A stretch of DNA of 64,000 bases, taken from the NCBI GenBank assembly GCA_963677975.1, contig OY782677.1, forward strand, positions 643,178 through 707,177. Direction: 5' to 3'. Below the pieces are notes generated by a model, which was not told the DNA's origin, searched no databases, and saw nothing but the letters and a program-made list of their open reading frames with translations. A program made the translations under genes and the position numbers. The stretch is from Bacteroidales bacterium. GTDB lineage: Bacteria; Bacteroidota; Bacteroidia; Bacteroidales; UBA4417. Below, piece by piece: positions 34,747 to 61,226 of the stretch. Within the stretch, counting starts at the first letter, position 1. Each line of letters begins with the position of its first letter.

Positions 34747-37482
34747 ATGAAAAAAAATCTCTATTTCGCTCAAATACTGCTTCTTAGCAGTTTGCTATTA
34801 ACATTGTTTCTTGGATTCAATACTTCATTATCAGGCCAGGACCTTGACCAAACAAGGATAAACGAATACTATTGGGGAACCCCTTTGAACAGGGTGCTTT
34901 ACGATTTGAAGAATAAGTACAAAATCCCTATAAACTACGACTCTGTAATGGTTGACGGATTTAAAATCGACTACCTGTTCAGCAATACGGTGGCGCGGAG
35001 AGCACTCGACATCATTTTCCGTGACAACACGAACCTCTTTTTTACTATCGATTCGAACAATGTAGTTCAGGTAATGCCCCGCGAACTATCAACAGGGAAT
35101 ATGCTCACCAGCGAAAACCTGAAATACCAGGGTAATCCGCGGAGGTTCGATTTTACTGCCAATGGTATGGTGAAAGACAAGTTAAGCGGAGAACCTCTGC
35201 CATTTGCATCAGTACTCATACGGTCGAACGGCGATGGTGCAATAACCAATGTAGATGGCTATTTTGCGCTGCAACACGTGCCTTCCGATACTTCAGCCAT
35301 TGTGGTATTCTATCTGGGCTATTACAAGCAGGTATTTTACCTTAGTCCGCAATCGGATATAAACAAACTTGTAGTAAGTCTCGACCCTATGGCTACTCAG
35401 CTGAAAGCCATCGAAATTACAGGACATCGCGAAGAACTGATGAAGGCTTCGTCGGGCGGGAATATGGTTAAAATGGCTCCCGCCAAAATAGCCGAATTAC
35501 CGAGTTTGGGCGAAAAGGATATTTTCAGGACGTTTCAGCTTATGCCCGGCATTGGCGGAAGTAACGAGTCATCGTCGGGGCTGTATGTCCGTGGCGGCAC
35601 TCCCGACCAGAACCTGATACTTTACGACGGGTTCACAGTATATCACCAGGAACACCTTTTCGGGATGTTCAGCGCGTTTAATCCAAATGCTATTAAGGAG
35701 GTACAGCTTTATAAAGGCGGTTTCGAATCGAAATACGGAGGAAGGCTTTCGAGCGTGATGGAAATCATCGGAAAAACCGGAAACGAAAAAAAATTCAATG
35801 CCGGTGTCGACGCCAGTTTTCTTGGTATAAACGGGTATGTGGAAATCCCGGTAAACAAAAAAGGATCTGTTTTTTTTGCTGCCCGGCGGTCGTATAAAAC
35901 ATTCCTGTATGAAAAACTCTTCGATTCGTTTACACAGAACACAAGCACCGTTCCTACCCCATCAGAAGTTCCAACCGGAGGCCCGCCGGGGATGGGCAGG
36001 TCGCAGGAACAGCAATCGCCTACGTCATACTTTTATGATTTGAATTTTAAAGCCACATACCCTGTTACCAGGAAAGACATTATTTCGTACAGCTACTTCA
36101 GTGGCCAGGATGTGTATGATAACTCGAGGGACTTGAGCCGTTCGCGCGGCGGTATGGACATGTTGGGCAGTGTTACCGATATGACGAAATGGGGCAACTG
36201 GGGAACCAGCCTTAAATGGTCGCGGAAATGGAACGACAAAATCTATTCGAATAACCTGCTTTCGTTTTCCAACTATTTCAGTTCCAAAGACCGTTCATCC
36301 AAACGATCATTTACCGATTCCACAGGAGTAACCACAACTTCAAATTCAGGAACTGTCGAAGATAATAAACTGAAAGATCTTTGTTTCAAAACAGATAATG
36401 AACTCAAAACAGGTCTGCATAACCAACTGGAATTTGGTGCACAATTCAACCAGTACAATATTAAATACGATTTCGTCGAGAACGATACTTTATCGATTCT
36501 CAACATGAAGGAAAACGGATCGCTGGTGGCTCTGTACTTCCAGGACCGGTGGAAACCGTATGATAAATTTAATTTTCTGCCCGGTATAAGAACCTCTTTT
36601 TACAGCAATACATCTAAAATTTATTTCGAACCACGGCTCCAGGCATCGTACGACCTCACTTCAAAACTAAAACTTAAAGGGTCAACCGGAGTGTTTTACC
36701 AGTTTGCCAACCGTATAATCCGTGAGGATATTCAATCAGGCAGCCGCGATGTGTGGGTGCTTTCTGATGGCGAAAAAATCCCTGTTAGCCGTGCCCTTCA
36801 TTTCATTGCAGGTGCCAGTTACGAGACCAAAGATTACCTGTTCGATGCTGAAGCCTATTATAAAAAGCTTACCGGCCTCACCGAGTACACCCTGAGGTTT
36901 ACGCAGCAGTTTGGGCATAGCATCGATTATTCATCACTTTTTTATAACGGCAACGGCTATACCCGCGGTTGTGACCTTCTGGTTCAGAAAAAATACGGAA
37001 GTTATACCGGATGGGTCGGTTATACGCTCTCCGAAACCCGTTACCATTTCCCTGTTTATGGTTCGGAATATTTCAGTGCCACCCAGGATGTTACTCATGA
37101 ACTCAAAATAGTTAATACCTATAAAGTACAGAAGTGGACCTTTTCGGCAACCTGGATATTTGGAACAGGGATGTCGTACACCCGTCCTATAGGAGGATTT
37201 GTGCTTACCATGCCCGACAGCACTACCGTAACGGCTATTATCCCGGGAACAAAAAATGCATCACGCCTTCCGAACTATCACAGGTTGGATATTTCAGCCA
37301 AATACGACTTTAATCTATTTGAATCGGGCAAGGGAAGTATAAGTTTTTCGGTCTTCAATGTGTATAACCGCAGAAATGTGTGGTATAAGGAATTTGAAAT
37401 CGACGATACCGGTCTCACCGAAACCAACATAACCCTTCTGGGAATTACCCCCAATGTCTCACTTTCAATACAACTCAGGTAG
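34747..37482 (+). CDS. TonB-dependent receptor with an STN-like N-terminal extension, CarboxypepD_reg and Plug domains
   Basis: Signal peptide; an STN-like segment (NRVLYDLKNKYKIPINYDS...ARRALDIIF...VVQVMP); GMVKDKLSGEPLPFASVLI...TNVDGYFAL; a Plug; a long barrel ending in SLSIQLR. Confidence 0.88.
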   Translation: MKKNLYFAQILLLSSLLLTLFLGFNTSLSGQDLDQTRINEYYWGTPLNRVLYDLKNKYKIPINYDSVMVDGFKIDYLFSNTVARRALDIIFRDNTNLFFTIDSNNVVQVMPRELSTGNMLTSENLKYQGNPRRFDFTANGMVKDKLSGEPLPFASVLIRSNGDGAITNVDGYFALQHVPSDTSAIVVFYLGYYKQVFYLSPQSDINKLVVSLDPMATQLKAIEITGHREELMKASSGGNMVKMAPAKIAELPSLGEKDIFRTFQLMPGIGGSNESSSGLYVRGGTPDQNLILYDGFTVYHQEHLFGMFSAFNPNAIKEVQLYKGGFESKYGGRLSSVMEIIGKTGNEKKFNAGVDASFLGINGYVEIPVNKKGSVFFAARRSYKTFLYEKLFDSFTQNTSTVPTPSEVPTGGPPGMGRSQEQQSPTSYFYDLNFKATYPVTRKDIISYSYFSGQDVYDNSRDLSRSRGGMDMLGSVTDMTKWGNWGTSLKWSRKWNDKIYSNNLLSFSNYFSSKDRSSKRSFTDSTGVTTTSNSGTVEDNKLKDLCFKTDNELKTGLHNQLEFGAQFNQYNIKYDFVENDTLSILNMKENGSLVALYFQDRWKPYDKFNFLPGIRTSFYSNTSKIYFEPRLQASYDLTSKLKLKGSTGVFYQFANRIIREDIQSGSRDVWVLSDGEKIPVSRALHFIAGASYETKDYLFDAEAYYKKLTGLTEYTLRFTQQFGHSIDYSSLFYNGNGYTRGCDLLVQKKYGSYTGWVGYTLSETRYHFPVYGSEYFSATQDVTHELKIVNTYKVQKWTFSATWIFGTGMSYTRPIGGFVLTMPDSTTVTAIIPGTKNASRLPNYHRLDISAKYDFNLFESGKGSISFSVFNVYNRRNVWYKEFEIDDTGLTETNITLLGITPNVSLSIQLR

Positions 37483-37484
37483 CT

Positions 37485-38294
37485 ATGAAAAAATATTCAT
37501 CAATAATTGTGGCAGTCATTTGCCTGGTTGGTCTTGCTTCGTGCAGCAAAGAATTAATGACACCTATAACCGGTGATAATACCGCCATTGTTGAATCCTA
37601 CCTGAAAGCGGGCGATTCGGCGATACTGGTTTATATTTCCAAAATGCTACCTTATTCTGACGATACCTCGGATATAAAAGAAATGATTCCGGGGATTGAT
37701 GTTTTCATCAATGGCAATAAGCTAAACGAAATTGAGAATGGTATTTACCAGTTGCAAATGGGTAACGAAAGAGTTTCGGGAGGAACAACCTACAATCTCG
37801 AATTCGAATATAGTGGAAACACGGTTTCGTCGCAAACCACCATCCCTGGATCGCCCGTTGATTTTGCATCATCAGCATCCTATATTTATGCTGACCGTAT
37901 TGTAGCGGGTTCACCTTCACATCCCGGAATGATGGACCCCGTTGAACTTACCTGGACCAATACTGATAATTCATACTATTACCTGATTGTAAAGTACCTT
38001 GAAGCAACACCCGATTACATTAATGCCAATTTTACAAACAGCGATTTTCAATTTATCCAGAGTTCCAGCCCGACCCGGGAAAGTTTCTACCGGCTCGATC
38101 AGCGGAATATCCGATGTTTCGGTACCTACCGCATCCTATTGTACAAAGTAACTAATGAGTTCAATGATGTTTTCACGAAAAACGGGACCAACTCGAATAA
38201 CTTAGTGAACCCGAGTACCAATATTATCAATGGTTTTGGCGTTTTTACAGGTATGAATGCAGATACTTTGTACCTGGAGGTCATTCCTAATTAA
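37485..38294 (+). CDS. DUF4249-like lipoprotein (usual partner of this TBDT class)
   Basis: Lipobox LASC. It starts 2 nt after the TBDT stop. Size and position are typical, and the C-terminus has GFGVFTG. Confidence 0.7.
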   Translation: MKKYSSIIVAVICLVGLASCSKELMTPITGDNTAIVESYLKAGDSAILVYISKMLPYSDDTSDIKEMIPGIDVFINGNKLNEIENGIYQLQMGNERVSGGTTYNLEFEYSGNTVSSQTTIPGSPVDFASSASYIYADRIVAGSPSHPGMMDPVELTWTNTDNSYYYLIVKYLEATPDYINANFTNSDFQFIQSSSPTRESFYRLDQRNIRCFGTYRILLYKVTNEFNDVFTKNGTNSNNLVNPSTNIINGFGVFTGMNADTLYLEVIPN

Positions 38295-44210: not shown

Positions 44211-47200
44211 TTAATCAAGTGAATAAATTATTTTTACCTGTTTCATTTCATTATTTCCATACATAAGTGGCAGGTACATCGGCTCGGCTTTGGCGGGGTT
44301 TAGATGAAAAATGCCTACATATCTTGGTAGCAAATCAAATTTAAAGGTGTATTTCCCGATAAAAAGGTGGTCAAGATAAATATTAACCTGGTTTTTGTAA
44401 TATTCACGATGGGCCTCGCTGTAAGAAGCCTTGGTTTTTTCATTATAAGAACAGCCGGCAGGAATCGGCACCTGTAACATTATGTAGTCAGCATCTTTCT
44501 TAACATGCACGGTAATCGAGCAGGTTACTTTTTTACCCGCAACCAGAATACCCGGTTTTTGATCAGTAGTGAAAGAGGTGGAGATTTCAAAAAAATCAGT
44601 TTTTGCTTTCGGATTCTCGTCCCTCAGGGTTTGATATGTGCTTATATAAACCGGCCCCGTTCCTGTTTTTCGAATGGTAAACCGCGCCGAAGGAGAAATT
44701 TTCAACTTAGTGGGAAATGTGCTGATTGTTTGGTTGATATCACCGGCTAACTGTATTTTGGGTTTGTTATACTCATTCATGGTTATATCTGGCAATAATG
44801 TCTCGATAGTATTTGTCGACTCATAAGTATTGCGCCACGATCCGGTATGCCTGATTTCGAAAAAATAGTTGCGGATACGCCACAACATATCCTTGTATAA
44901 TCCTGAACTCCTGATGATCCGATAAGCAGAAAGCGTTGCCGCTGTTGAATTGCTGCAGATATGATAATAGCTATCCCTGACCGGTATAAACGTATTTCCA
45001 TAGAGTGTTGTATCAAATGATCTTACCAGGCTATCAATATTAACTGGTATTCCCATCTTCTGTCGTAGTTCGAGAATCATCATTTTTTCCGTTATAGTAT
45101 GGCTTTTCTTCCGTTCAAGATTTTGAATTACTTCGGCCAGGCCTACATAATCTGGAATAGCTGATAACAATTGGGCTATAATAAATGAATCATAGTGTAA
45201 AGTATCCGTTGAATTATAGACTAAATACTGTGAAAATTTTAGCTTGTCGAATTCTACTTTGTATCCTGCCTTTTCAGCCGAGCTGAAGGCTTCAATCACG
45301 TGTTTCGACATCCAGAGTGATGTTGGCCCTTTTCCCCACCAGCCCCACATACCATCCTCGTTCTGGTTTTGCCTGAGCAGGTAAATAAGTTTATTGATTT
45401 CCTTATCATTATCGAAGATTTCGCCTTTATATTCCAGCAAGTACTTCCTGAACAGAAGAGCCTTTAGTTTTGAGGCCATTTGCTCATTGCAGTTATAAAT
45501 ATAGGTTACAACTTTTTCTGTTTCATCGAGAAGCACATCTAATTCGCTTATATCGAAGCTGATTGTAACACTGTCAGTTCCTGATTCGAAAACAGGTGCA
45601 GCAACCATTGTGTCGGATTGAAGATAGAAGAACTGCCCTTTATTCACTTCAGACCCCTTGGGAATGATTTCGAGATTGCGTGATTCACCATCGAAATACC
45701 CGTCATCGGAGAGAAAGGAATAGGTGATATTTACTGAATCATGGTCTTGTGCAACAAAGGGTAATGTGTCGATAACAACGTCGGTAAAAGATTGTGTATG
45801 TGTGAACAACGTATCGCTGTTAACTTTTAGCTGCGACCTGCCTTTAACAGTTCCGGTATTATAATTGATAACTTTTCCGAGTGCCTTAACACTGTCGCCG
45901 GCAACCAGAAACCGAGGCATGGCGATCTGTGCCGAAAGGGGCTTAAAAGCTTTCACGGAACCGTTCGTCTGGCCTGTTTTTCGCTTGTCGGTAATTGCGA
46001 TAACCGAAGTTTGCCAGTTTGTAATATCATCGGGGAACCGGACTTTAAAACTGACCTTACCCAGTTTATCAGTTCGTAACTGCGGTTGCCAGAAAGCGTA
46101 ATCGGAGAAATTACTACGGAGCGAAGTTGCATTTTTTGCCGCTTCCATAAACTCATCGGTGATTTCGATTCCTTTTGAAGATTTGGCAAAACCTGTATTG
46201 GTTGTTACCAGTATAGCGCCATTAGAAGCTTTTTCGCCAAACCGGGCTACTGCCATCTCGCCCGATATTTCTTCAGTATGATGAATCGATGATTTATCGA
46301 AATCACTCCAGTTACCATAAAACACAATTCCATCTACTATAATAAGCTTCTGATTGGCCTTTACGGTAGCTCCGGGTTCATTGGTTGTAACCTGTATGCC
46401 CGCAACTCTGGCAGTCATGCCTGACATCATATTGTCCTGAGCATACTCCATTTCCTGGCTGGATACCGTTGCTGACGAAACACCATGTTCCCGAGCTTGT
46501 CGGGTGATCCCATAAGCAGTTACCACAACTCCTTCTATTGAAACTGCACTTGGGCTCAGATAAAAATCGATATTGTCATATTCACCAACTTCCACTTCTT
46601 GCATTTTCATACCTACGAAACTGACCTGAAGAACAGGTTTTATTAATGAGATTTTCAATCGAAACTTACCATCTATATCGGTTAAAGTGCCATTTGAAGT
46701 ACCTTTCAATAATACAGTTGCACCAGGTATGGGTCCTTTGTCTTCTGAATCGCGAACAATTCCTGTGATGTACCTTCCGTCACCTTCGAATTCCATGAAA
46801 GCACTATAAGAGCGCTGTAATGCAACATAATCTTTTTGTGTAACCGAATTAAAGAACACATTGACAAATTTGTCGCGGTAAATTATTTCACATAACTTCT
46901 GGCTTAAGGAATCCCGCGGATGGATTTGTGCGGTTTGTATTGAGTTCAGCACCTTCGTTTGTCCTTCCCGGACCTCAACAGAGTCTGATTTAATATATTG
47001 GCATCCAGGAAATATAGTGATAATATCATAGTAGCCTTTTTCAAGATTGATGTACGTTGATGCCCTGCATATTATTGAAAATCTGGGTTCTCCTCTTCGG
47101 AAAACAATGTGAAAAAGAGGGGTGAGATTAGAGCCAGATCCAATCGGCGATTTTAATAAGATAACCTTACCGGTACTCCCCCATGAAGCATAGGGTTCAG

Positions 47201-50123
47201 CTAGTCCCGGGGAGTTATCAGCAATCTTTTTCAGTTTGAGTGTCTCCCATATGTCAAAGATGACTTTCTCAGTAAGCACACTATCAGCGAGTGTGATATC
47301 TCTTGTGGTTGAGAAGTCGAGATGGGGTTGAGCTTTTTTCTCCTGAGTCCGCATTTTTATCAAGCCGGGTGCGAAATCATACTCAAACCCGGGCTCAAAT
47401 ACCGTTTTTGTTCCCCAGGAACCCGTTTGTTTAAATTCAAATTCTTCAGCACGCAACGGACCGGCAAAATCGGATTTTACGAATCGCCCCTGGATGAAAT
47501 TATTCTGCAGGAAAACATTATCGTGTTGTTTAATATATGCGAAGCCATCGGAGAAATTATTCCTTACCGGCATAATATAACTCATCAGGTATTTTTCCTC
47601 GTCTTCGGAATATTTGCCTTTTTCCGCTCCTTTGATGTATACATTGGAGAGTTGTGCGTCGTCACTCACACTGAATACCGTTTTATATCCCGATTTGAAG
47701 GTAACATTACGGATCATTATTTTTTTTGTTGATGTCCGAATCATGATTGTATGCAGGCCCGGACTTACTGCAAAAGAATATGGTGAAAATCCCGGTTTGG
47801 AATTAGCAATATAAACTGGCCTTTGGTCGACATATACTGCCTGGATAGGTTCAAAATAACCGTCATGGGTTATAAAAGGGGAAAACTGAGTAATGCCTTC
47901 CACCGTTGGAATGGTGTAACTGAAAATGCTGTCGGGTGGATAAGCAAGGCGATAAAATCGGGTAGTATCAAGTTTAAGTGGCTTTATCCAGTTGTTGAAT
48001 AGCTCCGGATGGTTGGAATAGATTCCTTTGAATTCAACATTGTTTAGGGTAAAAGTGTTTATCAGCCGACGAGCATGCTTCTTTTCACGTATGAAATCTC
48101 CAATATCTGGTAATGGTTTGTTAAATTTTGCTGTATAGGCTAGTGCAGTTACATCTGCATCAGGAACCGGTTTTCCCCTGGCATCCTCAACCGAAATTTG
48201 TATTTGGGTTTCCTGTCCTGGAATTACAATACCGGGTTGTTCCACCTTAACCAGGAGGTGATTCTTCCTGTAAGGGATACTGTATTCAGCATTCTGCACC
48301 TTACCGGCCCAAATGTATTGTAATGAGAGGTAGTAATTTTTTTTATCCTTATACCGCTGTTTGTAATCAAACTCCCTGTCGTATCCCCGCTGAATCTGTT
48401 TGTTGTTTCTGTAAAGGTAGTAGGTAAACGGAAGGTATTGTGGGTTAAAAACACGTAAAGAGATTTTCCCCTTTTCACGGCTCGAAGAACAGAAAATCTC
48501 AGCATCCTCATCTTCCATATCGATTACTTTCTCTATCTGGCCCACCTCAACTGCTATCGAATTTATTAAAGGGTCGATATGCATCGTTACCGGTAATACT
48601 ACTCTCCGGTTATAAACCAGGTTGCCAAAACCATCTATCCCTTTTATTACGCCACTTGCCCACTCCAGTCGCCCATCGATCATATAGGCAAGTGTAATGG
48701 AATCGTCTTGAGTAGTCGAGGTAATTTCTGTAACGCGATGTTTAAAAGGAACTAAGATGACTTTTTCTTTTGTGTCGAAATCAGCGGTCTGCATTATCAT
48801 TTTAACGGAGTAACTCATGCTTTCGGCACTGAAAATGGAATCCGGGATTTCGATTTCTGTTTCACCTGATGCTAAAAGGGGGATTTTTTTATTGAGTAAG
48901 GTATCCGGAATAAAAACCCAATCTCCGCGAATTTCATTAAAGCTTTTTGGCGTTATAATTAGCCGTAAGGAGGCATCGGGAAGGTTGAGCCCATTTTCAT
49001 CGGTTCCTTTTACAAACAACCTGAAAGGAACACCCGCAATATGGTTTGCAGATGGTTGCCTCACTTCGAGATTCGATTTCCTTAACTCATAATCTTCTAG
49101 TTTGAAACTCCCTGAAATAATAGGGTAACGATTTTCCGCAAAACTGAGCCTGTACTCTTTATCAATTTTCAGATTCAGTGATTTATTGAGAATTAACTCA
49201 TAGCTATACCCTCCGGGTCGGTACGGACTGACTGTTCCTAATAATTTCTCTTCGTTATCATGCCAGTTTCCGATACGTACAATCAAAGGTTTATCAATCA
49301 GTTTTGTATCTTCACCCGTGATGAATGCTTTACATCGAACCGTATCGCCGGGCCTGTAAACAGGTTTGTTAAAAACCATTAACCCGTCTTCTTCATATCT
49401 GTTACGATTAATAGAATTAAATATCCTGCTGAAGCAATACCTGAAATAGTTATATGATTTGTTGTAACTGTAAGGGACAATAAGCTGTTTTACTCCGTCA
49501 AAAGGTAGCCGGATAACATTGTACAAGGGGAGGATCACATACCTCAGAGGAGTTCCGTAAACCAATGTTCGACGCCCTCTTTTAAAGGTTGAATTATCCC
49601 GGCCTCTTGTGAGTTCGACATATTGAGTGTGTCCAAGCCAGCTTACTGTGAGCATTCCCTTTTTGTTTGCCTTCGGGATACGGTATAACCGGGCTTTTGT
49701 ATCGAAACCGATGATTCTGTTATTGATTCTTACCGATGCGTCAGATACTGTATTCCCGCATAAATCAACCACTTCAATACATAAATCGGCACTGTTATTT
49801 TTAATGTTAACTATACAGTTATTCACCGTATAAGGTTCTATTACCAGATCGGTTTCCTTAAGATAAACTTTCAGATAATGTCCGGCTTCTAATGAATTTG
49901 TATAATTGCCGTACGTCGGAAATGAATCGATAAGTGTGTGAAAATCAGTTTCCGCGAAGTTAATGTATTCAGTATTCTTGTGTTTCCAGTAACGGGATGC
50001 TTCCTTTTCACTTATCTTAAAAATATAAGTATAAGGCGAAATCTGTATTGGTTTAGCACTATTTTGTGATAGCGAATAAAACGGGAATGCCAGGAACAGA
50101 ATAACAGATAACAGATTCTTCAT
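44211..50123 (-). CDS. Giant alpha-2-macroglobulin family protein with an internal CarboxypepD_reg + TonB-Plug-like module
   Basis: MKNLLSVILFLAFPFYSLSQ signal at the ATG at 50123 (the ORF extends to 50174); GIVRDSEDKGPIPGATVLLKGTSNGTLTDIDGKF plus a Plug-like segment; the A2M signature FWQPQLRTDKLGKVSFKVRFPDDITNWQ...PRFLVAGD; a thioester-domain-like YNCNEQ (45480..45491) and QNEDGMWGWW. Confidence 0.85.
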   Translation of the reverse strand: MKNLLSVILFLAFPFYSLSQNSAKPIQISPYTYIFKISEKEASRYWKHKNTEYINFAETDFHTLIDSFPTYGNYTNSLEAGHYLKVYLKETDLVIEPYTVNNCIVNIKNNSADLCIEVVDLCGNTVSDASVRINNRIIGFDTKARLYRIPKANKKGMLTVSWLGHTQYVELTRGRDNSTFKRGRRTLVYGTPLRYVILPLYNVIRLPFDGVKQLIVPYSYNKSYNYFRYCFSRIFNSINRNRYEEDGLMVFNKPVYRPGDTVRCKAFITGEDTKLIDKPLIVRIGNWHDNEEKLLGTVSPYRPGGYSYELILNKSLNLKIDKEYRLSFAENRYPIISGSFKLEDYELRKSNLEVRQPSANHIAGVPFRLFVKGTDENGLNLPDASLRLIITPKSFNEIRGDWVFIPDTLLNKKIPLLASGETEIEIPDSIFSAESMSYSVKMIMQTADFDTKEKVILVPFKHRVTEITSTTQDDSITLAYMIDGRLEWASGVIKGIDGFGNLVYNRRVVLPVTMHIDPLINSIAVEVGQIEKVIDMEDEDAEIFCSSSREKGKISLRVFNPQYLPFTYYLYRNNKQIQRGYDREFDYKQRYKDKKNYYLSLQYIWAGKVQNAEYSIPYRKNHLLVKVEQPGIVIPGQETQIQISVEDARGKPVPDADVTALAYTAKFNKPLPDIGDFIREKKHARRLINTFTLNNVEFKGIYSNHPELFNNWIKPLKLDTTRFYRLAYPPDSIFSYTIPTVEGITQFSPFITHDGYFEPIQAVYVDQRPVYIANSKPGFSPYSFAVSPGLHTIMIRTSTKKIMIRNVTFKSGYKTVFSVSDDAQLSNVYIKGAEKGKYSEDEEKYLMSYIMPVRNNFSDGFAYIKQHDNVFLQNNFIQGRFVKSDFAGPLRAEEFEFKQTGSWGTKTVFEPGFEYDFAPGLIKMRTQEKKAQPHLDFSTTRDITLADSVLTEKVIFDIWETLKLKKIADNSPGLAEPYASWGSTGKVILLKSPIGSGSNLTPLFHIVFRRGEPRFSIICRASTYINLEKGYYDIITIFPGCQYIKSDSVEVREGQTKVLNSIQTAQIHPRDSLSQKLCEIIYRDKFVNVFFNSVTQKDYVALQRSYSAFMEFEGDGRYITGIVRDSEDKGPIPGATVLLKGTSNGTLTDIDGKFRLKISLIKPVLQVSFVGMKMQEVEVGEYDNIDFYLSPSAVSIEGVVVTAYGITRQAREHGVSSATVSSQEMEYAQDNMMSGMTARVAGIQVTTNEPGATVKANQKLIIVDGIVFYGNWSDFDKSSIHHTEEISGEMAVARFGEKASNGAILVTTNTGFAKSSKGIEITDEFMEAAKNATSLRSNFSDYAFWQPQLRTDKLGKVSFKVRFPDDITNWQTSVIAITDKRKTGQTNGSVKAFKPLSAQIAMPRFLVAGDSVKALGKVINYNTGTVKGRSQLKVNSDTLFTHTQSFTDVVIDTLPFVAQDHDSVNITYSFLSDDGYFDGESRNLEIIPKGSEVNKGQFFYLQSDTMVAAPVFESGTDSVTISFDISELDVLLDETEKVVTYIYNCNEQMASKLKALLFRKYLLEYKGEIFDNDKEINKLIYLLRQNQNEDGMWGWWGKGPTSLWMSKHVIEAFSSAEKAGYKVEFDKLKFSQYLVYNSTDTLHYDSFIIAQLLSAIPDYVGLAEVIQNLERKKSHTITEKMMILELRQKMGIPVNIDSLVRSFDTTLYGNTFIPVRDSYYHICSNSTAATLSAYRIIRSSGLYKDMLWRIRNYFFEIRHTGSWRNTYESTNTIETLLPDITMNEYNKPKIQLAGDINQTISTFPTKLKISPSARFTIRKTGTGPVYISTYQTLRDENPKAKTDFFEISTSFTTDQKPGILVAGKKVTCSITVHVKKDADYIMLQVPIPAGCSYNEKTKASYSEAHREYYKNQVNIYLDHLFIGKYTFKFDLLPRYVGIFHLNPAKAEPMYLPLMYGNNEMKQVKIIYSLD

Positions 50124-50255
50124 ATTCAAAGGAATATTGATGCAATATAGCAAAAAAGACAGCAAGAACGACAAAATCTTCTTGGGTATTCAATGTTGAA
50201 TGCTAAAGGAACATAAATCATTATGGGTAAAAATGTCTCTCAGCAATAAAATTGG

Positions 50256-52070
50256 TTACTTTTTCGAGGTCGAAAAATAGTACAACTTTTCGCTTCTTGG
50301 GTTAAATTTAACCGGGTTTGTTCCGGCGGCTATAAATCCTTTGAGCATAATCTTATTCCCCTCAGCGGCAACCTTTCCGTCGAATTTCCAGTAATAGGGA
50401 TTATGAACGAATTTGATGCATTTCGGATCATCCTTTACCCTTGGGAAATCACAACAATTCAACGAACCTTTGGGGTATGTAAAACCATATATTGAGCCAA
50501 CAACCATTATAACCCCGGTTGGATCGATGGTTCCCTGGAGGTTGGTTCCTTTTACATAGAATCCGTCCCTGGGATATTCCTTGTGAAATTCAAAATCGCA
50601 GGTGACATTTTTGCCTTTTATTTCAAACTTCAGGGTGGAAATTGTGATTGTATACCTGCTGTCAACTTTTTCAAGATTATCGGGGTTAAACTCAACCCGG
50701 CCTTCATAAATCCCATCGAACCCGGGGTATCTGACCAGTTGAATCCGGGCCGATGAGGCATTATGGGTCGAATAGCTCAATATTGCAATTTCGGTCCATT
50801 TACCGGGCTGGAAAACAATATTCAGGCTATCCTTTTTCGAATAGAGATCGAGCATACGGATCAGTTTCCGTTCGGTTTTGCAACATTCAAAAATCTGAAC
50901 CTTGCAATCGCCTTCCTGTGCCAGGTTCTTTATGGTATAAATCGAATCCTTACAATCGCCCTGCTTGAGGATTTTTAGCACACGCAGCGACATATAGGGA
51001 ACCTGAACGTCATATTCGGCCGTGTACTCGGTGTCTTTTTTCTTGAATATAATTGAATTTACATAGGCCGGACCCGCTTCCCCGATTTTCAGGAACATGG
51101 TTTTACCATCGCCATCTTTATGCTGTAGCAGGTACATCATGTAATCGTAATATTCCTGTCCCAGCCCTTTGGATCCAAGGTCGGCTTTCACATAATCATC
51201 GAGCGAACTCCTGACATATGAAAACGAATTCGACCACTTGGTCGGGTAGAAGAAGATTTGTTTGAACTCTGCCTTCTTCCCCGTACGGTAATACTGAAGG
51301 AAACTAAGAAAAGCGCTGCTGATATACCAGTTGGGCTGAACATTACAAACATCCCACGAGTCATGTATTATATTCTGAATGCCTGTTTTTGCATCCATGG
51401 CCGATTCTTCAGCCTCGTATGGAGTATTCGTCGGAAAAACAAGACGGTCGGCCTGGGTTGCAAGACTTTCCCACCACCAGAAATTAACACCCCTGGATAC
51501 ACCCAGGGCAAATACGCTGTATGATTTTGCGGTTACATAATGCAGAAGTTCGTGTGCGCACACCTTCTGCAGGGAAAGCGCCTGACTTGGGATTTCGGCT
51601 GATATGGAAACATTCTGGCTGATGTAAACCCAACCCGTGAGGGGATTGTTTTCGCCATCCGTACCGGGATCCAGACGACAGACATACACATCCACACTGG
51701 TTTTAATGGTATAAACAGCTACATGGTCAACCTCCCTGTCGGCCGCTACAAAACCCAATTCTACATATTTTGCAAGTGCTTTTTCGAAATTGGCACCCAT
51801 ATCGATGATGTAATATGGCACCGCACGCTTTGTTTTGCCCGGGTTTTCAGGATCATAAATCATGTCGGGATCACCGCTCACCGCTTTTTCCCCGATTGGT
51901 TTATTGACCGGAACATACGAGGCATCCTTGCGTTGGGGAACCGAGTCGGCATTGTAATGGATATAAAAATGTTCCGTTTTATAAAGGTCAGGATAAGTTT
52001 GCGAAGATCCGGTTTTTTGAAATCCAACGATGAGCAATAAACCAAAAGCGATAGCAGTAAAGAGTTTCAT
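50256..52070 (-). CDS. Secreted putative zinc metallopeptidase (HExxH, gluzincin-like) with C-terminal beta-rich domains
   Basis: Signal peptide; CAHELLHYV (HELLH at 51540..51554) followed 24 residues later by WWWESLA. No other recognisable domain by eye. Confidence 0.65.
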   Translation of the reverse strand: MKLFTAIAFGLLLIVGFQKTGSSQTYPDLYKTEHFYIHYNADSVPQRKDASYVPVNKPIGEKAVSGDPDMIYDPENPGKTKRAVPYYIIDMGANFEKALAKYVELGFVAADREVDHVAVYTIKTSVDVYVCRLDPGTDGENNPLTGWVYISQNVSISAEIPSQALSLQKVCAHELLHYVTAKSYSVFALGVSRGVNFWWWESLATQADRLVFPTNTPYEAEESAMDAKTGIQNIIHDSWDVCNVQPNWYISSAFLSFLQYYRTGKKAEFKQIFFYPTKWSNSFSYVRSSLDDYVKADLGSKGLGQEYYDYMMYLLQHKDGDGKTMFLKIGEAGPAYVNSIIFKKKDTEYTAEYDVQVPYMSLRVLKILKQGDCKDSIYTIKNLAQEGDCKVQIFECCKTERKLIRMLDLYSKKDSLNIVFQPGKWTEIAILSYSTHNASSARIQLVRYPGFDGIYEGRVEFNPDNLEKVDSRYTITISTLKFEIKGKNVTCDFEFHKEYPRDGFYVKGTNLQGTIDPTGVIMVVGSIYGFTYPKGSLNCCDFPRVKDDPKCIKFVHNPYYWKFDGKVAAEGNKIMLKGFIAAGTNPVKFNPRSEKLYYFSTSKK

Positions 52071-52093: not shown

Positions 52094-52101
52094 CAAAACT
52101 A
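52094..52101 (-). promoter_or_regulatory. -7 box (TAGTTTTG) for the HExxH gene
   Basis: TAnnTTTG 23 nt upstream of the ATG at 52070. Confidence 0.35.
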
Positions 52102-59387: not shown

Positions 59388-61226
59388 ATGAAAGACCACA
59401 TTTTATTTTTTTGTCTTTTTACGAGTTTGTTCTCATACAGTCAGGTAACTTTCGAAAAAAAATATAATGACGGTTATTATGATGGAGCAAGCGTTATCAG
59501 GCAATGCTCTGACAAAGGATATATTATTCTCGGAACTTCTACCCGTGTATCAGCTACCCAATATGCTTGTATTACTAAAACTGATTCCCTGGGGAATATT
59601 GTCTGGTCAAAGTATTTGTACTCATGGAACCGAGGCAATAGTATCGAAGAAACGTATGATGGAGGCTTTATCGTTGTGGGACATAATCAATATTCTACTA
59701 ATAAAGTATCCGTTCTTAATTTGAATTCGGCGGGCAACATTAATTGGGCAAAGGAATATAGCTACAACTATTCATTCATTGAAGGGAACAATATTGTCCA
59801 ATCTGCTGACAGCAATTATACAATAGCCGGCACTTGCGAAGTTGGGTCAGGGAACAGAGACATTTTTTTGCTCAGATTAGATATGAATGGAGATAGCTTA
59901 TGGACGAAAAAATACGGAGATGCTGGATTTGACGAGGTTTATGATATGAAGGAAACAAATGATGGCGATTATATTATAGCCGGCACTTCGCAGCTTGGTT
60001 ATCATGGCGAATATCAGTTATATATTCTGAAAGTAAATTCTGAAGGAACTAATATTTGGGGAAGAAAGTATCTCGAAGGTCTCTCGGCAAAGTCAATTGA
60101 TCTTACTTTTGATGATGGTTATATTGTTTTAGGTTATATGTATGGCATGATTATGATCAAAGTTGATAACGCTGGAAATGTAAAATGGACTAAAATGCTT
60201 AATGGTTTTCAAGGTAGTTGTATTATTGAAACAACGGATAAGGGATTTTATGCGACAGGTGATGATTTTTATCAGGTTAAAACAGATTCTGCCGGAAATA
60301 TAATCTGGGAAAAAAATCCGGAACAGTATGCGGGAGGGTACTCAAAAAACTGCATTCAGGCAACCGATACTGGAATCGCTACTGTTGGTCACTTTTATGA
60401 TGTTGATTATCAGAGAGAAACAATATTATTTATAAAATCAGATATCAATGGTTGTATTTGTCCTAATATTCAAAATATTTCCGGGCCAACCAATAATACG
60501 GTTAATCAACCATCTGAATTTACTGCCCTAATGAATTATGGAACAAATACACTTAACTACAACTGGTGCTCAAATTATGGTCAGATTGTCTCTGGTCAGA
60601 ATTCATCCTCGGCAAGGGTTATTTGGAGCCTAACAGGGATTGATACCCTTAGGGTCCATATTTCAAATGATTGCGGGACTGACAGTTTGATATTCCCTGT
60701 CAACATTTTAACTTGTGTAACTCCTTTGACCGATTCGATTTTTGGGAATTCAATTTCCTGGAATAATACAGAAAGTTATTTTGTAAACAAACTTGAAGGT
60801 TCTGAGCCAATTTTTTATAATTGGACATCCAATATAGCTAACATTACAGGAGGAAATGGTACAGATTCAGTAACTGTGAAATGGATGCATGATGGTACAG
60901 GATATCTGAAAATGATTGCACAAAATTTGTGCGGTCAGGATAGTTTAGTGAAATCAGTCACTGTTATATTAACATCAGTCGAAAAAACAGATAATGCCCA
61001 AATTGTTATCTATCCGAATCCGACTCCTGATGGTAACATAAGTTTGGAATCAACAACGACAATCGAAAAACTATCAGTTCTTTCTGTAAATGGTGAATTG
61101 CTTTATGAAAATAAGTTTAACGGGAATTCAGGGCATGTTGACTTATCTGCTTTACCTAAAGGTATTTACATTTTGAAATTGTTTTTATCCAATTACTATC
61201 TGATCAGAAAACTCATCATTCTTTAG
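59388..61226 (+). CDS. T9SS type A cargo protein with beta-propeller-like repeats and two PKD-like domains
   Basis: Signal peptide; recurring D-G-[GDY]-[FY]-I-[IV]-x-G repeats; two ...CG.DSL... PKD-like modules; C-terminal IYPNPTPDGNI...LPKGIYILKL. Confidence 0.8.
   Translation: MKDHILFFCLFTSLFSYSQVTFEKKYNDGYYDGASVIRQCSDKGYIILGTSTRVSATQYACITKTDSLGNIVWSKYLYSWNRGNSIEETYDGGFIVVGHNQYSTNKVSVLNLNSAGNINWAKEYSYNYSFIEGNNIVQSADSNYTIAGTCEVGSGNRDIFLLRLDMNGDSLWTKKYGDAGFDEVYDMKETNDGDYIIAGTSQLGYHGEYQLYILKVNSEGTNIWGRKYLEGLSAKSIDLTFDDGYIVLGYMYGMIMIKVDNAGNVKWTKMLNGFQGSCIIETTDKGFYATGDDFYQVKTDSAGNIIWEKNPEQYAGGYSKNCIQATDTGIATVGHFYDVDYQRETILFIKSDINGCICPNIQNISGPTNNTVNQPSEFTALMNYGTNTLNYNWCSNYGQIVSGQNSSSARVIWSLTGIDTLRVHISNDCGTDSLIFPVNILTCVTPLTDSIFGNSISWNNTESYFVNKLEGSEPIFYNWTSNIANITGGNGTDSVTVKWMHDGTGYLKMIAQNLCGQDSLVKSVTVILTSVEKTDNAQIVIYPNPTPDGNISLESTTTIEKLSVLSVNGELLYENKFNGNSGHVDLSALPKGIYILKLFLSNYYLIRKLIIL

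Follow-up and report, generated by a model that had tools for sequence, protein, structure and literature searches.

A SusC-like plug cassette at the bait position of a widespread alpha-2-macroglobulin family of the Bacteroidota, and its apparently independent gluzincin-like neighbour in a Bacteroidales genome

The closest described relatives of the giant protein treated here are YfhM (ECAM) from Escherichia coli and SaA2M from Salmonella, bacterial alpha-2-macroglobulins (A2Ms) in which an array of macroglobulin (MG) domains is combined with the A2M domain PF00207, a thioester domain in which the motif CxEQ is found, and bMG10, a C-terminal MG domain carrying an EXMY motif. In ECAM, the thioester is formed between Cys1187 and Gln1190 and is shielded by the EXMY of the C-terminal MG domain, while the bait region extends from Arg923 to Leu942 (PMC4498604). 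YfhM is a lipoprotein, and pbpC abuts yfhM in the E. coli genome. A second group of relatives is formed by the SusC/RagA transporters (Bt1763, BT2263/4, RagA), which begin with an N-terminal extension domain (NTE, Pfam 13715), a DEVVVxGYG-type TonB box, and a plug, and which have in addition a 22-strand barrel and a SusD partner. The Ton box of Bt1763, VDEVVV/DEVVVTG, is required, since its deletion or mutation abolishes transport (PMC7782687). Here, a locus is described in which parts of the two groups are found in a single protein. The window, i.e., the whole stretch of DNA that was analysed, comprises 64,000 nt from a Bacteroidales bacterium (assembly GCA_963677975.1, contig OY782677.1, positions 643,178 to 707,177), and two adjacent genes in it were studied: a gene for a 604-aa protein with an HExxH motif at 50256..52070 (-) and, downstream of it, a gene for a 1970-aa A2M-type protein at 44211..50123 (-). 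Both are intact open reading frames (ORFs), and all features given below for the two genes lie on this minus strand. The giant protein belongs to a widespread family, referred to here as the A2M-plug family, in which a complete thioester macroglobulin is combined, at its trigger site, with the TonB-interacting end of a SusC transporter. The reading favoured here, with moderate confidence, is that the two genes are independent neighbours, one encoding an exported gluzincin-like peptidase and the other a non-lipidated, periplasmic thioester A2M trap that would bind TonB through the SusC-like cassette.

The 1970-aa protein is assigned by its domains and motifs to the thioester-type (type I) bacterial A2Ms. 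Its hydrophobic, Sec-type signal peptide, read from the translation as MKNLLSVILFLAFPFYSLSQ (50064..50123), has neither a lipobox nor a Cys, and hence the protein has no lipid anchor of the YfhM kind; similarly, the N-termini of the listed members of the A2M-plug family show a signal peptidase I-type site followed by Gln and are not lipoprotein-type. The N-terminal ~1100 aa (46770..50063) form an array of MG/Ig-like domains, as recognised by Pfam in family members, which is ~200 residues longer than the array of YfhM and in which 144 positions are conserved at ≥95% across the family. Pfam A2M, bMG10, and MG2 are each found in 23/23 A2M-plug members, the MG2 match of the window protein itself being weak, and DUF7382, Big_1, BatD, and MG4 are found in the N-terminal array of some members. 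The A2M domain PF00207 (aa 1343–1430, 45834..46097, E 5e-18) lies directly after the cassette, and the profile of this region matches residues 701–803 of human A2M. The thioester domain region was placed at ~aa 1531–1800 (44724..45533) through an hhalign alignment to YfhM 1140–1400 and a PDB match to YfhM 1140–1238, and Pfam TED_complement is detected in this region in 4/23 family members. It contains the CNEQ thioester motif with C1545 and Q1548 (aa 1545–1548, 45480..45491, by translation), which is present in 119 of the 120 listed homologues, the remaining one having CSEQ; across the family, the C, E, and Q of the motif are invariant and the N has a frequency of 0.99. In the C-terminal MG domain bMG10 (aa 1859–1952, 44268..44549, Pfam E 2e-13), the alignment places the EXMY thioester-pocket motif, here EPMY, at 44274..44285, and in the family its E is kept at 0.95 and its M and Y at 0.99 each. 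Alignment with E. coli YfhM by hhalign reached a probability of 95.5% over 539 columns, pairing YIYNCNEQMASK with YfhM YPYGCLEQTASG (CNEQ against CLEQ) and EPMYLP with ESMYVP, and the distance separating the bait position and the thioester is similar in the two proteins, at ~220–250 aa. These matches bear out the first-pass annotation, made from the sequence alone, which had described the protein as A2M-like with a thioester-type motif. Conservation of CNEQ together with EXMY is the mark of a functional thioester protein, and formation of the thioester is predicted from it.

Between the MG array and PF00207, a SusC-like cassette is embedded, consisting of an NTE, a TonB box, and a plug, which are contiguous and in their native order. 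The NTE domain (CarbopepD_reg_2, aa 1119–1201, 46521..46769, Pfam E 2.5e-17) is homologous to the NTE of SusC/RagA and matches the PDB NTE entries 9hfj and 6ytc. It leads into the TonB-box-like IEGVVVTAYG (46509..46538), which aligns with the DEVVVTGY region of SusC chains, and this is followed by a plug-like domain (aa 1206–1312, 46188..46508) that was delimited by the NCBIfam SusC model and a SusC profile match. PDB chains of SusC and RagA match aa 1113–1313, and the profile of the A2M-plug family matches residues 26–237 of the SusC chain 5t3r_D at E 1e-47 over the cassette (aa 1119–1312). The NCBIfam SusC/RagA model TIGR04056 matches aa 1118–1324 at E 3e-37, only positions 2–218 of its 981 being covered and nothing past position 218. 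No beta-barrel is present in the giant protein, the sequence after the cassette consisting of the A2M, thioester, and MG domains. The CarboxypepD_reg and Plug-like segment that had been seen inside this protein at the first reading is therefore confirmed by the Pfam, NCBIfam, and SusC chain matches. Identity of the giant protein as a TonB-dependent transporter was also considered and is excluded, as there is no barrel and the TIGR04056 score is 128.5 against a cutoff of 368.25; unlike SusC/RagA, it has neither the 22-strand barrel nor a SusD partner, and its cassette is internal in a soluble multidomain protein, whereas that of SusC/RagA is N-terminal.

The cassette is kept in all 120 listed homologues. 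Its most conserved stretch is the TonB box, for which the family consensus is L-[DE]-E-V-V-V-x-G-Y-G with residue frequencies of 0.84–0.97, and judged from these alignments, the thioester and the TonB box are both under strong purifying selection. Most members also keep the plug motifs IRGxS, PLYIINGV, and YGxRGANGVVII, and this near-complete SusC-like plug, in a protein with no barrel in cis, might be taken to enter a separate, plugless outer-membrane barrel, thereby anchoring the macroglobulin or gating the barrel. Such an arrangement in trans is judged very unlikely: the neighbouring genes, barrels included, are not conserved, the internal position of the cassette, which is preceded by ~1100 aa and followed by ~650 aa, would make insertion into a barrel sterically hard, and the plug motifs are eroded in the clade of the window protein. 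Elsewhere in the window, the only other match to the giant protein is the N-terminal region of a 911-aa ORF, which, with a 269-aa ORF, occupies 34747–38294 (+); in the public assembly annotation, the two are a TonB-dependent receptor (CarboxypepD_reg, Plug, barrel) and a DUF4249 protein.

The cassette ends immediately before PF00207, the domain that in known A2Ms comes after the bait region, and extrapolation of the ECAM bait by the hhalign offset leads to ~aa 1298–1317, the C-terminal edge of the cassette. It follows from these two observations that the cassette occupies the bait position. Where YfhM has a short disordered bait, the A2M-plug protein has a folded NTE–TonB box–plug cassette of ~200 aa and a conserved linker, and it thus differs from type I A2Ms in three of their usual features, namely the disordered bait, the lipid anchor, and the linkage to pbpC. 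A structured insert at this site has a precedent in eukaryotes. Complement C3, C4, and C5 carry a folded anaphylatoxin domain at the position equivalent to the A2M bait, and C3 is activated by convertase cleavage; the fold inserted there is unrelated to the plug cassette.

The position of the cassette also suits an alternative in which it is a decoy bait, i.e., a structured mimic of the periplasmic N-terminus of SusC, so that its cleavage by a protease or toxin would spring the thioester trap and no TonB binding would be needed. It has been reported that the Ton box of SusC is flexible and exposed (PMC7782687) and that known A2Ms are triggered by cleavage at the bait site (PMC4498604), and both reports fit this alternative. 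However, classical baits are variable and disordered, whereas the cassette and the linker that follows it are conserved (mean top-residue frequency 0.53–0.79); moreover, no protease that targets plugs has been identified, and the idea is reached purely by inference. A decoy role is accordingly rated as unlikely.

The A2M-plug family extends far beyond this genome. An identical 1970-aa protein (P0019) is present in public assemblies of the same organism, and all 120 listed homologues have 1900–2027 aa and the same domain set. When each GTDB species was represented by one genome in a pattern scan, at least 558 species genomes proved to contain a member, almost all of them labelled Bacteroidota and distributed over Bacteroidales, Marinilabiliales, Cytophagales, Saprospiraceae, Chitinophagaceae, Sphingobacteriaceae, and Flavobacteriia; cultured hosts include Marivirga, Flammeovirga, Chitinophaga, Mucilaginibacter, Pontibacter, and Aequorivita. 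The proteins are labelled in public records as "carboxypeptidase-like regulatory domain-containing protein", "SusC/RagA receptor", or "alpha-2-macroglobulin". No study of the A2M-plug architecture was found in the literature, the coverage searched being incomplete, and the family is apparently unstudied.

The first-pass annotation had proposed that the two adjacent genes form a pair, either a cognate protease and trap, a processing pair, or a self-protection pair, and had named the lack of a conserved neighbourhood beforehand as refuting this; no conserved neighbourhood was found from either side. The HExxH orthologues with 77% and 70% identity lie in a block of epimerase, tyrS, HExxH, GH47 (opposite strand), asnB, and PKD/CHU_C genes, and the window shares this syntenic block with them; in both orthologous loci, GH47 stands directly after HExxH at a distance of 49–72 nt, and there is no A2M gene between them. 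Distant HExxH homologues have unrelated neighbours, among them ftsZ/yqeY, PEP carboxylase, GMC oxidoreductases, a GntR regulator, and a beta-eliminating lyase. When 29 HExxH-type loci, 20 of which came from a scan of JGI metagenomes, were searched with the A2M family profile, an A2M-type protein was found in none (0/29), the matches being confined to the NTE–plug regions of ordinary transporters, and the gene tables of four further HExxH contigs added three more without an A2M partner (two P0003 contigs and P0006), the fourth being that of P0017, which is taken up below.

The same picture was obtained from the A2M side. The two closest A2M orthologues outside this organism, at 63% identity, occupy the same interval between tyrS and GH47, with a BNR_2 protein gene upstream and no HExxH gene (tyrS-...-BNR_2-A2M-...-GH47). 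The HExxH family profile found a homologue in none of the 80 A2M-type loci searched (0/80; 80 species-level genomes with flanks of ≤10 kb). Clustering of all neighbours in these loci gave no conserved A2M neighbour, be it pbpC, a barrel, a protease, or TonB, and the top neighbour family was present in ≤7/80 loci; whereas pbpC abuts yfhM in E. coli, the neighbours here are the HExxH gene and GH47, neither of which is conserved. The families are also unlike in size, with the at least 558 species genomes of the A2M type standing against ~18 clusters of full-length HExxH proteins among 5.8 billion proteins. In one locus with a 63% A2M orthologue (L010), a ~70-nt copy of the tyrS 3' end was found just downstream of the A2M gene (L010:16016-16085, and L010:7580-7654), which is 80% identical to the end of the window tyrS and, translated into 28 aa, shows 75% identity. 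The block of a 279-aa ORF, BNR_2, and A2M in L010 has the appearance of having been inserted long ago into the 3' end of tyrS. As far as these comparisons go, the tyrS–GH47 interval is a variable slot in this lineage and the HExxH–A2M adjacency is specific to this organism; as part of the reading favoured here, the two genes would be functionally independent and adjacent by chance within that interval. With the failure of the pairing, there is no new two-gene system here, and the A2M-plug family and the HExxH domain remain as leads.

A partnership restricted to this organism, in which the two genes are co-transcribed and cooperate, with the trap shielding the periplasm or the peptidase processing or activating the trap, would be favoured by the identical arrangement in two assemblies of the same organism, by the export of both proteins, and by the layout itself. 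The genes are on the same strand, 132 nt apart (50124..50255), and pattern and hairpin scans detected neither a perfect TAnnTTTG nor a terminator-like hairpin in the gap, in line with the earlier statement that no -7 box lies there. (The alternative gap measured from the TTG at 50174 is 81 nt and not 82 nt as then stated; this longer start only lengthens the region ahead of an obvious signal peptide.) Against a partnership stand the closest relatives, which have each gene without the other at the same locus, the lack of co-location in the 80 A2M-type and 29 HExxH-type loci, the very unequal family sizes, and the conserved 5' region of the A2M gene itself. The proximal ~45 nt of the gap, with a degenerate -7 box CTTTTTTG, belong to this region; the ~45 nt preceding the start codon can be aligned between the window and the orthologues in L010 and L091, and the L091 orthologue has a perfect TAATTTTG where the window has the degenerate box. 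Since this region is kept in orthologues, it belongs to the A2M gene itself, irrespective of what is found upstream, and a partnership of this kind is held to be highly improbable.

As for the HExxH gene, it had been credited with a promoter box of its own. The box is present as TAGTTTTG (52094..52101), at 24 nt upstream of the ATG, and by its pattern it may be a Bacteroidota -7 promoter element, but TAnnTTTG occurs in the window at the chance rate (62 observed against 63.3 expected), and for this reason the box alone is weak promoter evidence. A sigma-70-type promoter scan is not informative for Bacteroidota. The A2M gene had further been described as more AT-rich than its neighbours, which holds in direction: its GC is 0.405 and its GC at third codon positions (GC3) 0.401, compared with 0.446 ± 0.033 and 0.466 ± 0.047 for 36 large window ORFs, which is only ~1.2–1.4 standard deviations under the window mean, so that the gene is not an outlier, and other genes are lower still. 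Recent horizontal transfer of the A2M gene, considered from GC, is unsupported at this deviation and with orthologues in the same interval of related genomes.

The features first described for the 604-aa protein and its neighbour, i.e., both ORFs, HELLH at 51540..51554, and WWWESLA, whose Glu lies 24 residues further on, are all present, and both proteins have signal peptides. The 604-aa protein starts with a Sec-type signal peptide, MKLFTAIAFGLLLIVGFQKTGSS (52002..52070; from the translation, with the cleavage site inferred), which is followed by Gln, lacks a lipobox Cys, and is modelled as an N-terminal helix with low confidence. Neither a lipobox nor a type IX secretion (T9SS) C-terminal domain was detected in this protein, which makes a periplasmic location the default, and the protein is probably periplasmic. 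The N-terminal zincin-like domain (aa 24–330, 51081..52001), as delimited in the domain model, consists of a beta-sheet subdomain, an active-site helix, and a helical subdomain. In full-length numbering, which includes the initiator Met, HELLH corresponds to H173-E174-L-L-H177, and the WWWE at 51468..51479 provides E201, which the translation and models indicate as the predicted third zinc ligand on the following helix. H173 and H177 would likewise act as zinc ligands and E174 as the general base. Among aligned homologues, the H, E, and H of HExxH are invariant in 97/97, the Glu of WWxE is found in 99/99, and an Ala three residues later in 99/100, giving a superfamily signature of C-A-H-E-L-L-H ... 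W-W-x-E-x-x-A-x-Q-x-D. The remainder of the protein (aa 337–604, 50259..51062) forms two C-terminal beta-sandwich domains with conserved Cys, as indicated by an all-beta model and Foldseek, in which a CC and a C are invariant among homologues.

It was found that the 604-aa protein has no sequence match in Pfam, NCBIfam, or the PDB, even when the family profile was compared with the PDB at E ≤ 10, and ten members of the HExxH family had no match at E ≤ 10 to the Pfam peptidase families, including Peptidase_M30. In the AlphaFold2 model (pLDDT 84), a mixed beta/alpha N-domain precedes the two beta-sandwich domains, and HELLH lies in a long helix with E201 in the following one. A whole-protein Foldseek search was dominated by the sandwiches, which matched the C-terminal domain of C. 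perfringens enterotoxin, PliG, and the collagen-binding domains of ColG, and the sandwiches are probably substrate- or ligand-binding modules. The N-domain (aa 24–330) was therefore modelled alone to test for a peptidase fold (pLDDT 82, pTM 0.85). Its top Foldseek match was the M30 enzyme lugdulysin (7bb8_A; E 2.7e-3, probability 1.0, TM 0.54, 320 columns), with 3nqx, 9fqd, and 4k89 among the matches that follow; these are to the M4 enzymes vibriolysin and pseudolysin, selecase-type minigluzincins, Wss1, and M1 enzymes such as LTA4H. The protein resembles the M30 gluzincins lugdulysin and hyicolysin and the M4 enzymes of clan MA(E) in having HExxH on a long helix, the Glu on the following helix, and an N-terminal beta-sheet subdomain with a C-terminal helical subdomain; unlike them, it has a signature of its own, no sequence match, and two extra C-terminal beta-sandwiches. 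The invariant HExxH and Glu in ~100 homologues and a model closest to M30 lugdulysin agree with the first-pass assignment of a gluzincin-like protein, which motif and fold support at moderate strength. Membership in M30 or another named family is not supported, no sequence match being found at E ≤ 10. On the model, the fold is nearest to M30 while the sequence lies outside the described families, so that the fold class is a known one and the sequence family new.

The full-length HExxH family is confined to the 18 clusters mentioned above. When 1.84 billion representative proteins were searched exhaustively with a profile, 96 relatives were obtained, most of which share only the N-terminal ~330-aa domain, placed inside proteins of 700–1800 aa with TIG or PKD repeats; a few carry Peptidase_C10 and LRR modules instead. 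These relatives are publicly named as hypothetical or after an accessory domain only (PKD domain-containing), and the HExxH domain thus defines a superfamily of ~100 representative clusters of predicted zinc peptidases. In the remote relatives P0206, P0207, and P0216, the domain stands at the C-terminal end of proteins of 1760–1850 aa, and P0206 and P0207 begin with a Spi inhibitor I69, a Peptidase_C10 cysteine protease, and LRR repeats, a combination suggestive of dual-protease architectures. Near another HExxH homologue, P0014, an Inhibitor_I42 (chagasin-type cysteine protease inhibitor) is encoded at L095:199-618 (-) together with a T9SS cellulase; both are probably unrelated to it.

Under the favoured reading, the A2M-plug protein would be a periplasmic covalent trap for proteases of the ECAM type, and the TonB box of its cassette would bind to a TonB C-terminal domain. 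Such binding would attach the trap to the bridge that TonB forms between the membranes, in place of the lipid anchor of ECAM, or under TonB control. Either TonB docking or TonB triggering is plausible, and docking, which the first-pass annotation had suggested to TonB or to a TonB-dependent transporter, gains some support from the strong conservation of the TonB box; if the box is functional, it would imply a wider role of the Ton system and offer a tractable model for A2M-type triggering. A more far-reaching version, in which pulling by TonB/ExbBD or the binding of TonB replaces or supplements bait proteolysis, unfolding or retraction of the cassette freeing the thioester domain, is thought quite unlikely. 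If true, the protein would be a client of the Ton system that is not a transporter, and the first member of the A2M superfamily to be triggered mechanically and not by cleavage.

Several observations weigh against the favoured reading. The clade of the window protein (P0019, P0020, P0022) has lost the plug motif IxIRGxS and has diverged in YGxRGANGVVII, both of which the rest of the family keeps, and its TonB box, IEGVVVTAYG, departs from the consensus, so that the cassette may be decaying in this clade. For the HExxH domain, the best structural match in Foldseek is a modest one (TM 0.54, E 2.7e-3). The two genes are co-oriented and 132 nt apart, with no perfect -7 box or terminator between them, and co-transcription and a local functional link are conceivable. 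In addition, a 40% identical HExxH homologue (P0017, ENA ERZ1426841) is followed 357 nt downstream by a same-strand ORF of >2054 aa that runs off the contig end; this ORF is longer than all 120 listed A2M-plug members, which argues against its being one. The altered box and lost motif, and a Pfam Plug that is undetectable in 8/23 members, would also suit a cassette that is a remnant of domain shuffling, retained as a spacer or structural module in an ordinary trap and having no TonB function. The loss of IxIRGxS in the window clade explains why Pfam Plug, which is found in 15/23 members, is below threshold in the window protein. A mere relic is nevertheless decidedly unlikely, given the retention of the cassette throughout the listed homologues and the conservation of the TonB-box residues, which exceeds that of the NTE and plug on either side and indicates selection on the short peptide.

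Apart from the two genes, a 612-aa ORF at 59388–61226 (+) stands out as by far the most AT-rich large ORF of the window, with a GC of 0.355 and a GC3 of 0.304. It carries a T9SS Por_Secre_tail domain in the public assembly annotation and may be a recent acquisition.

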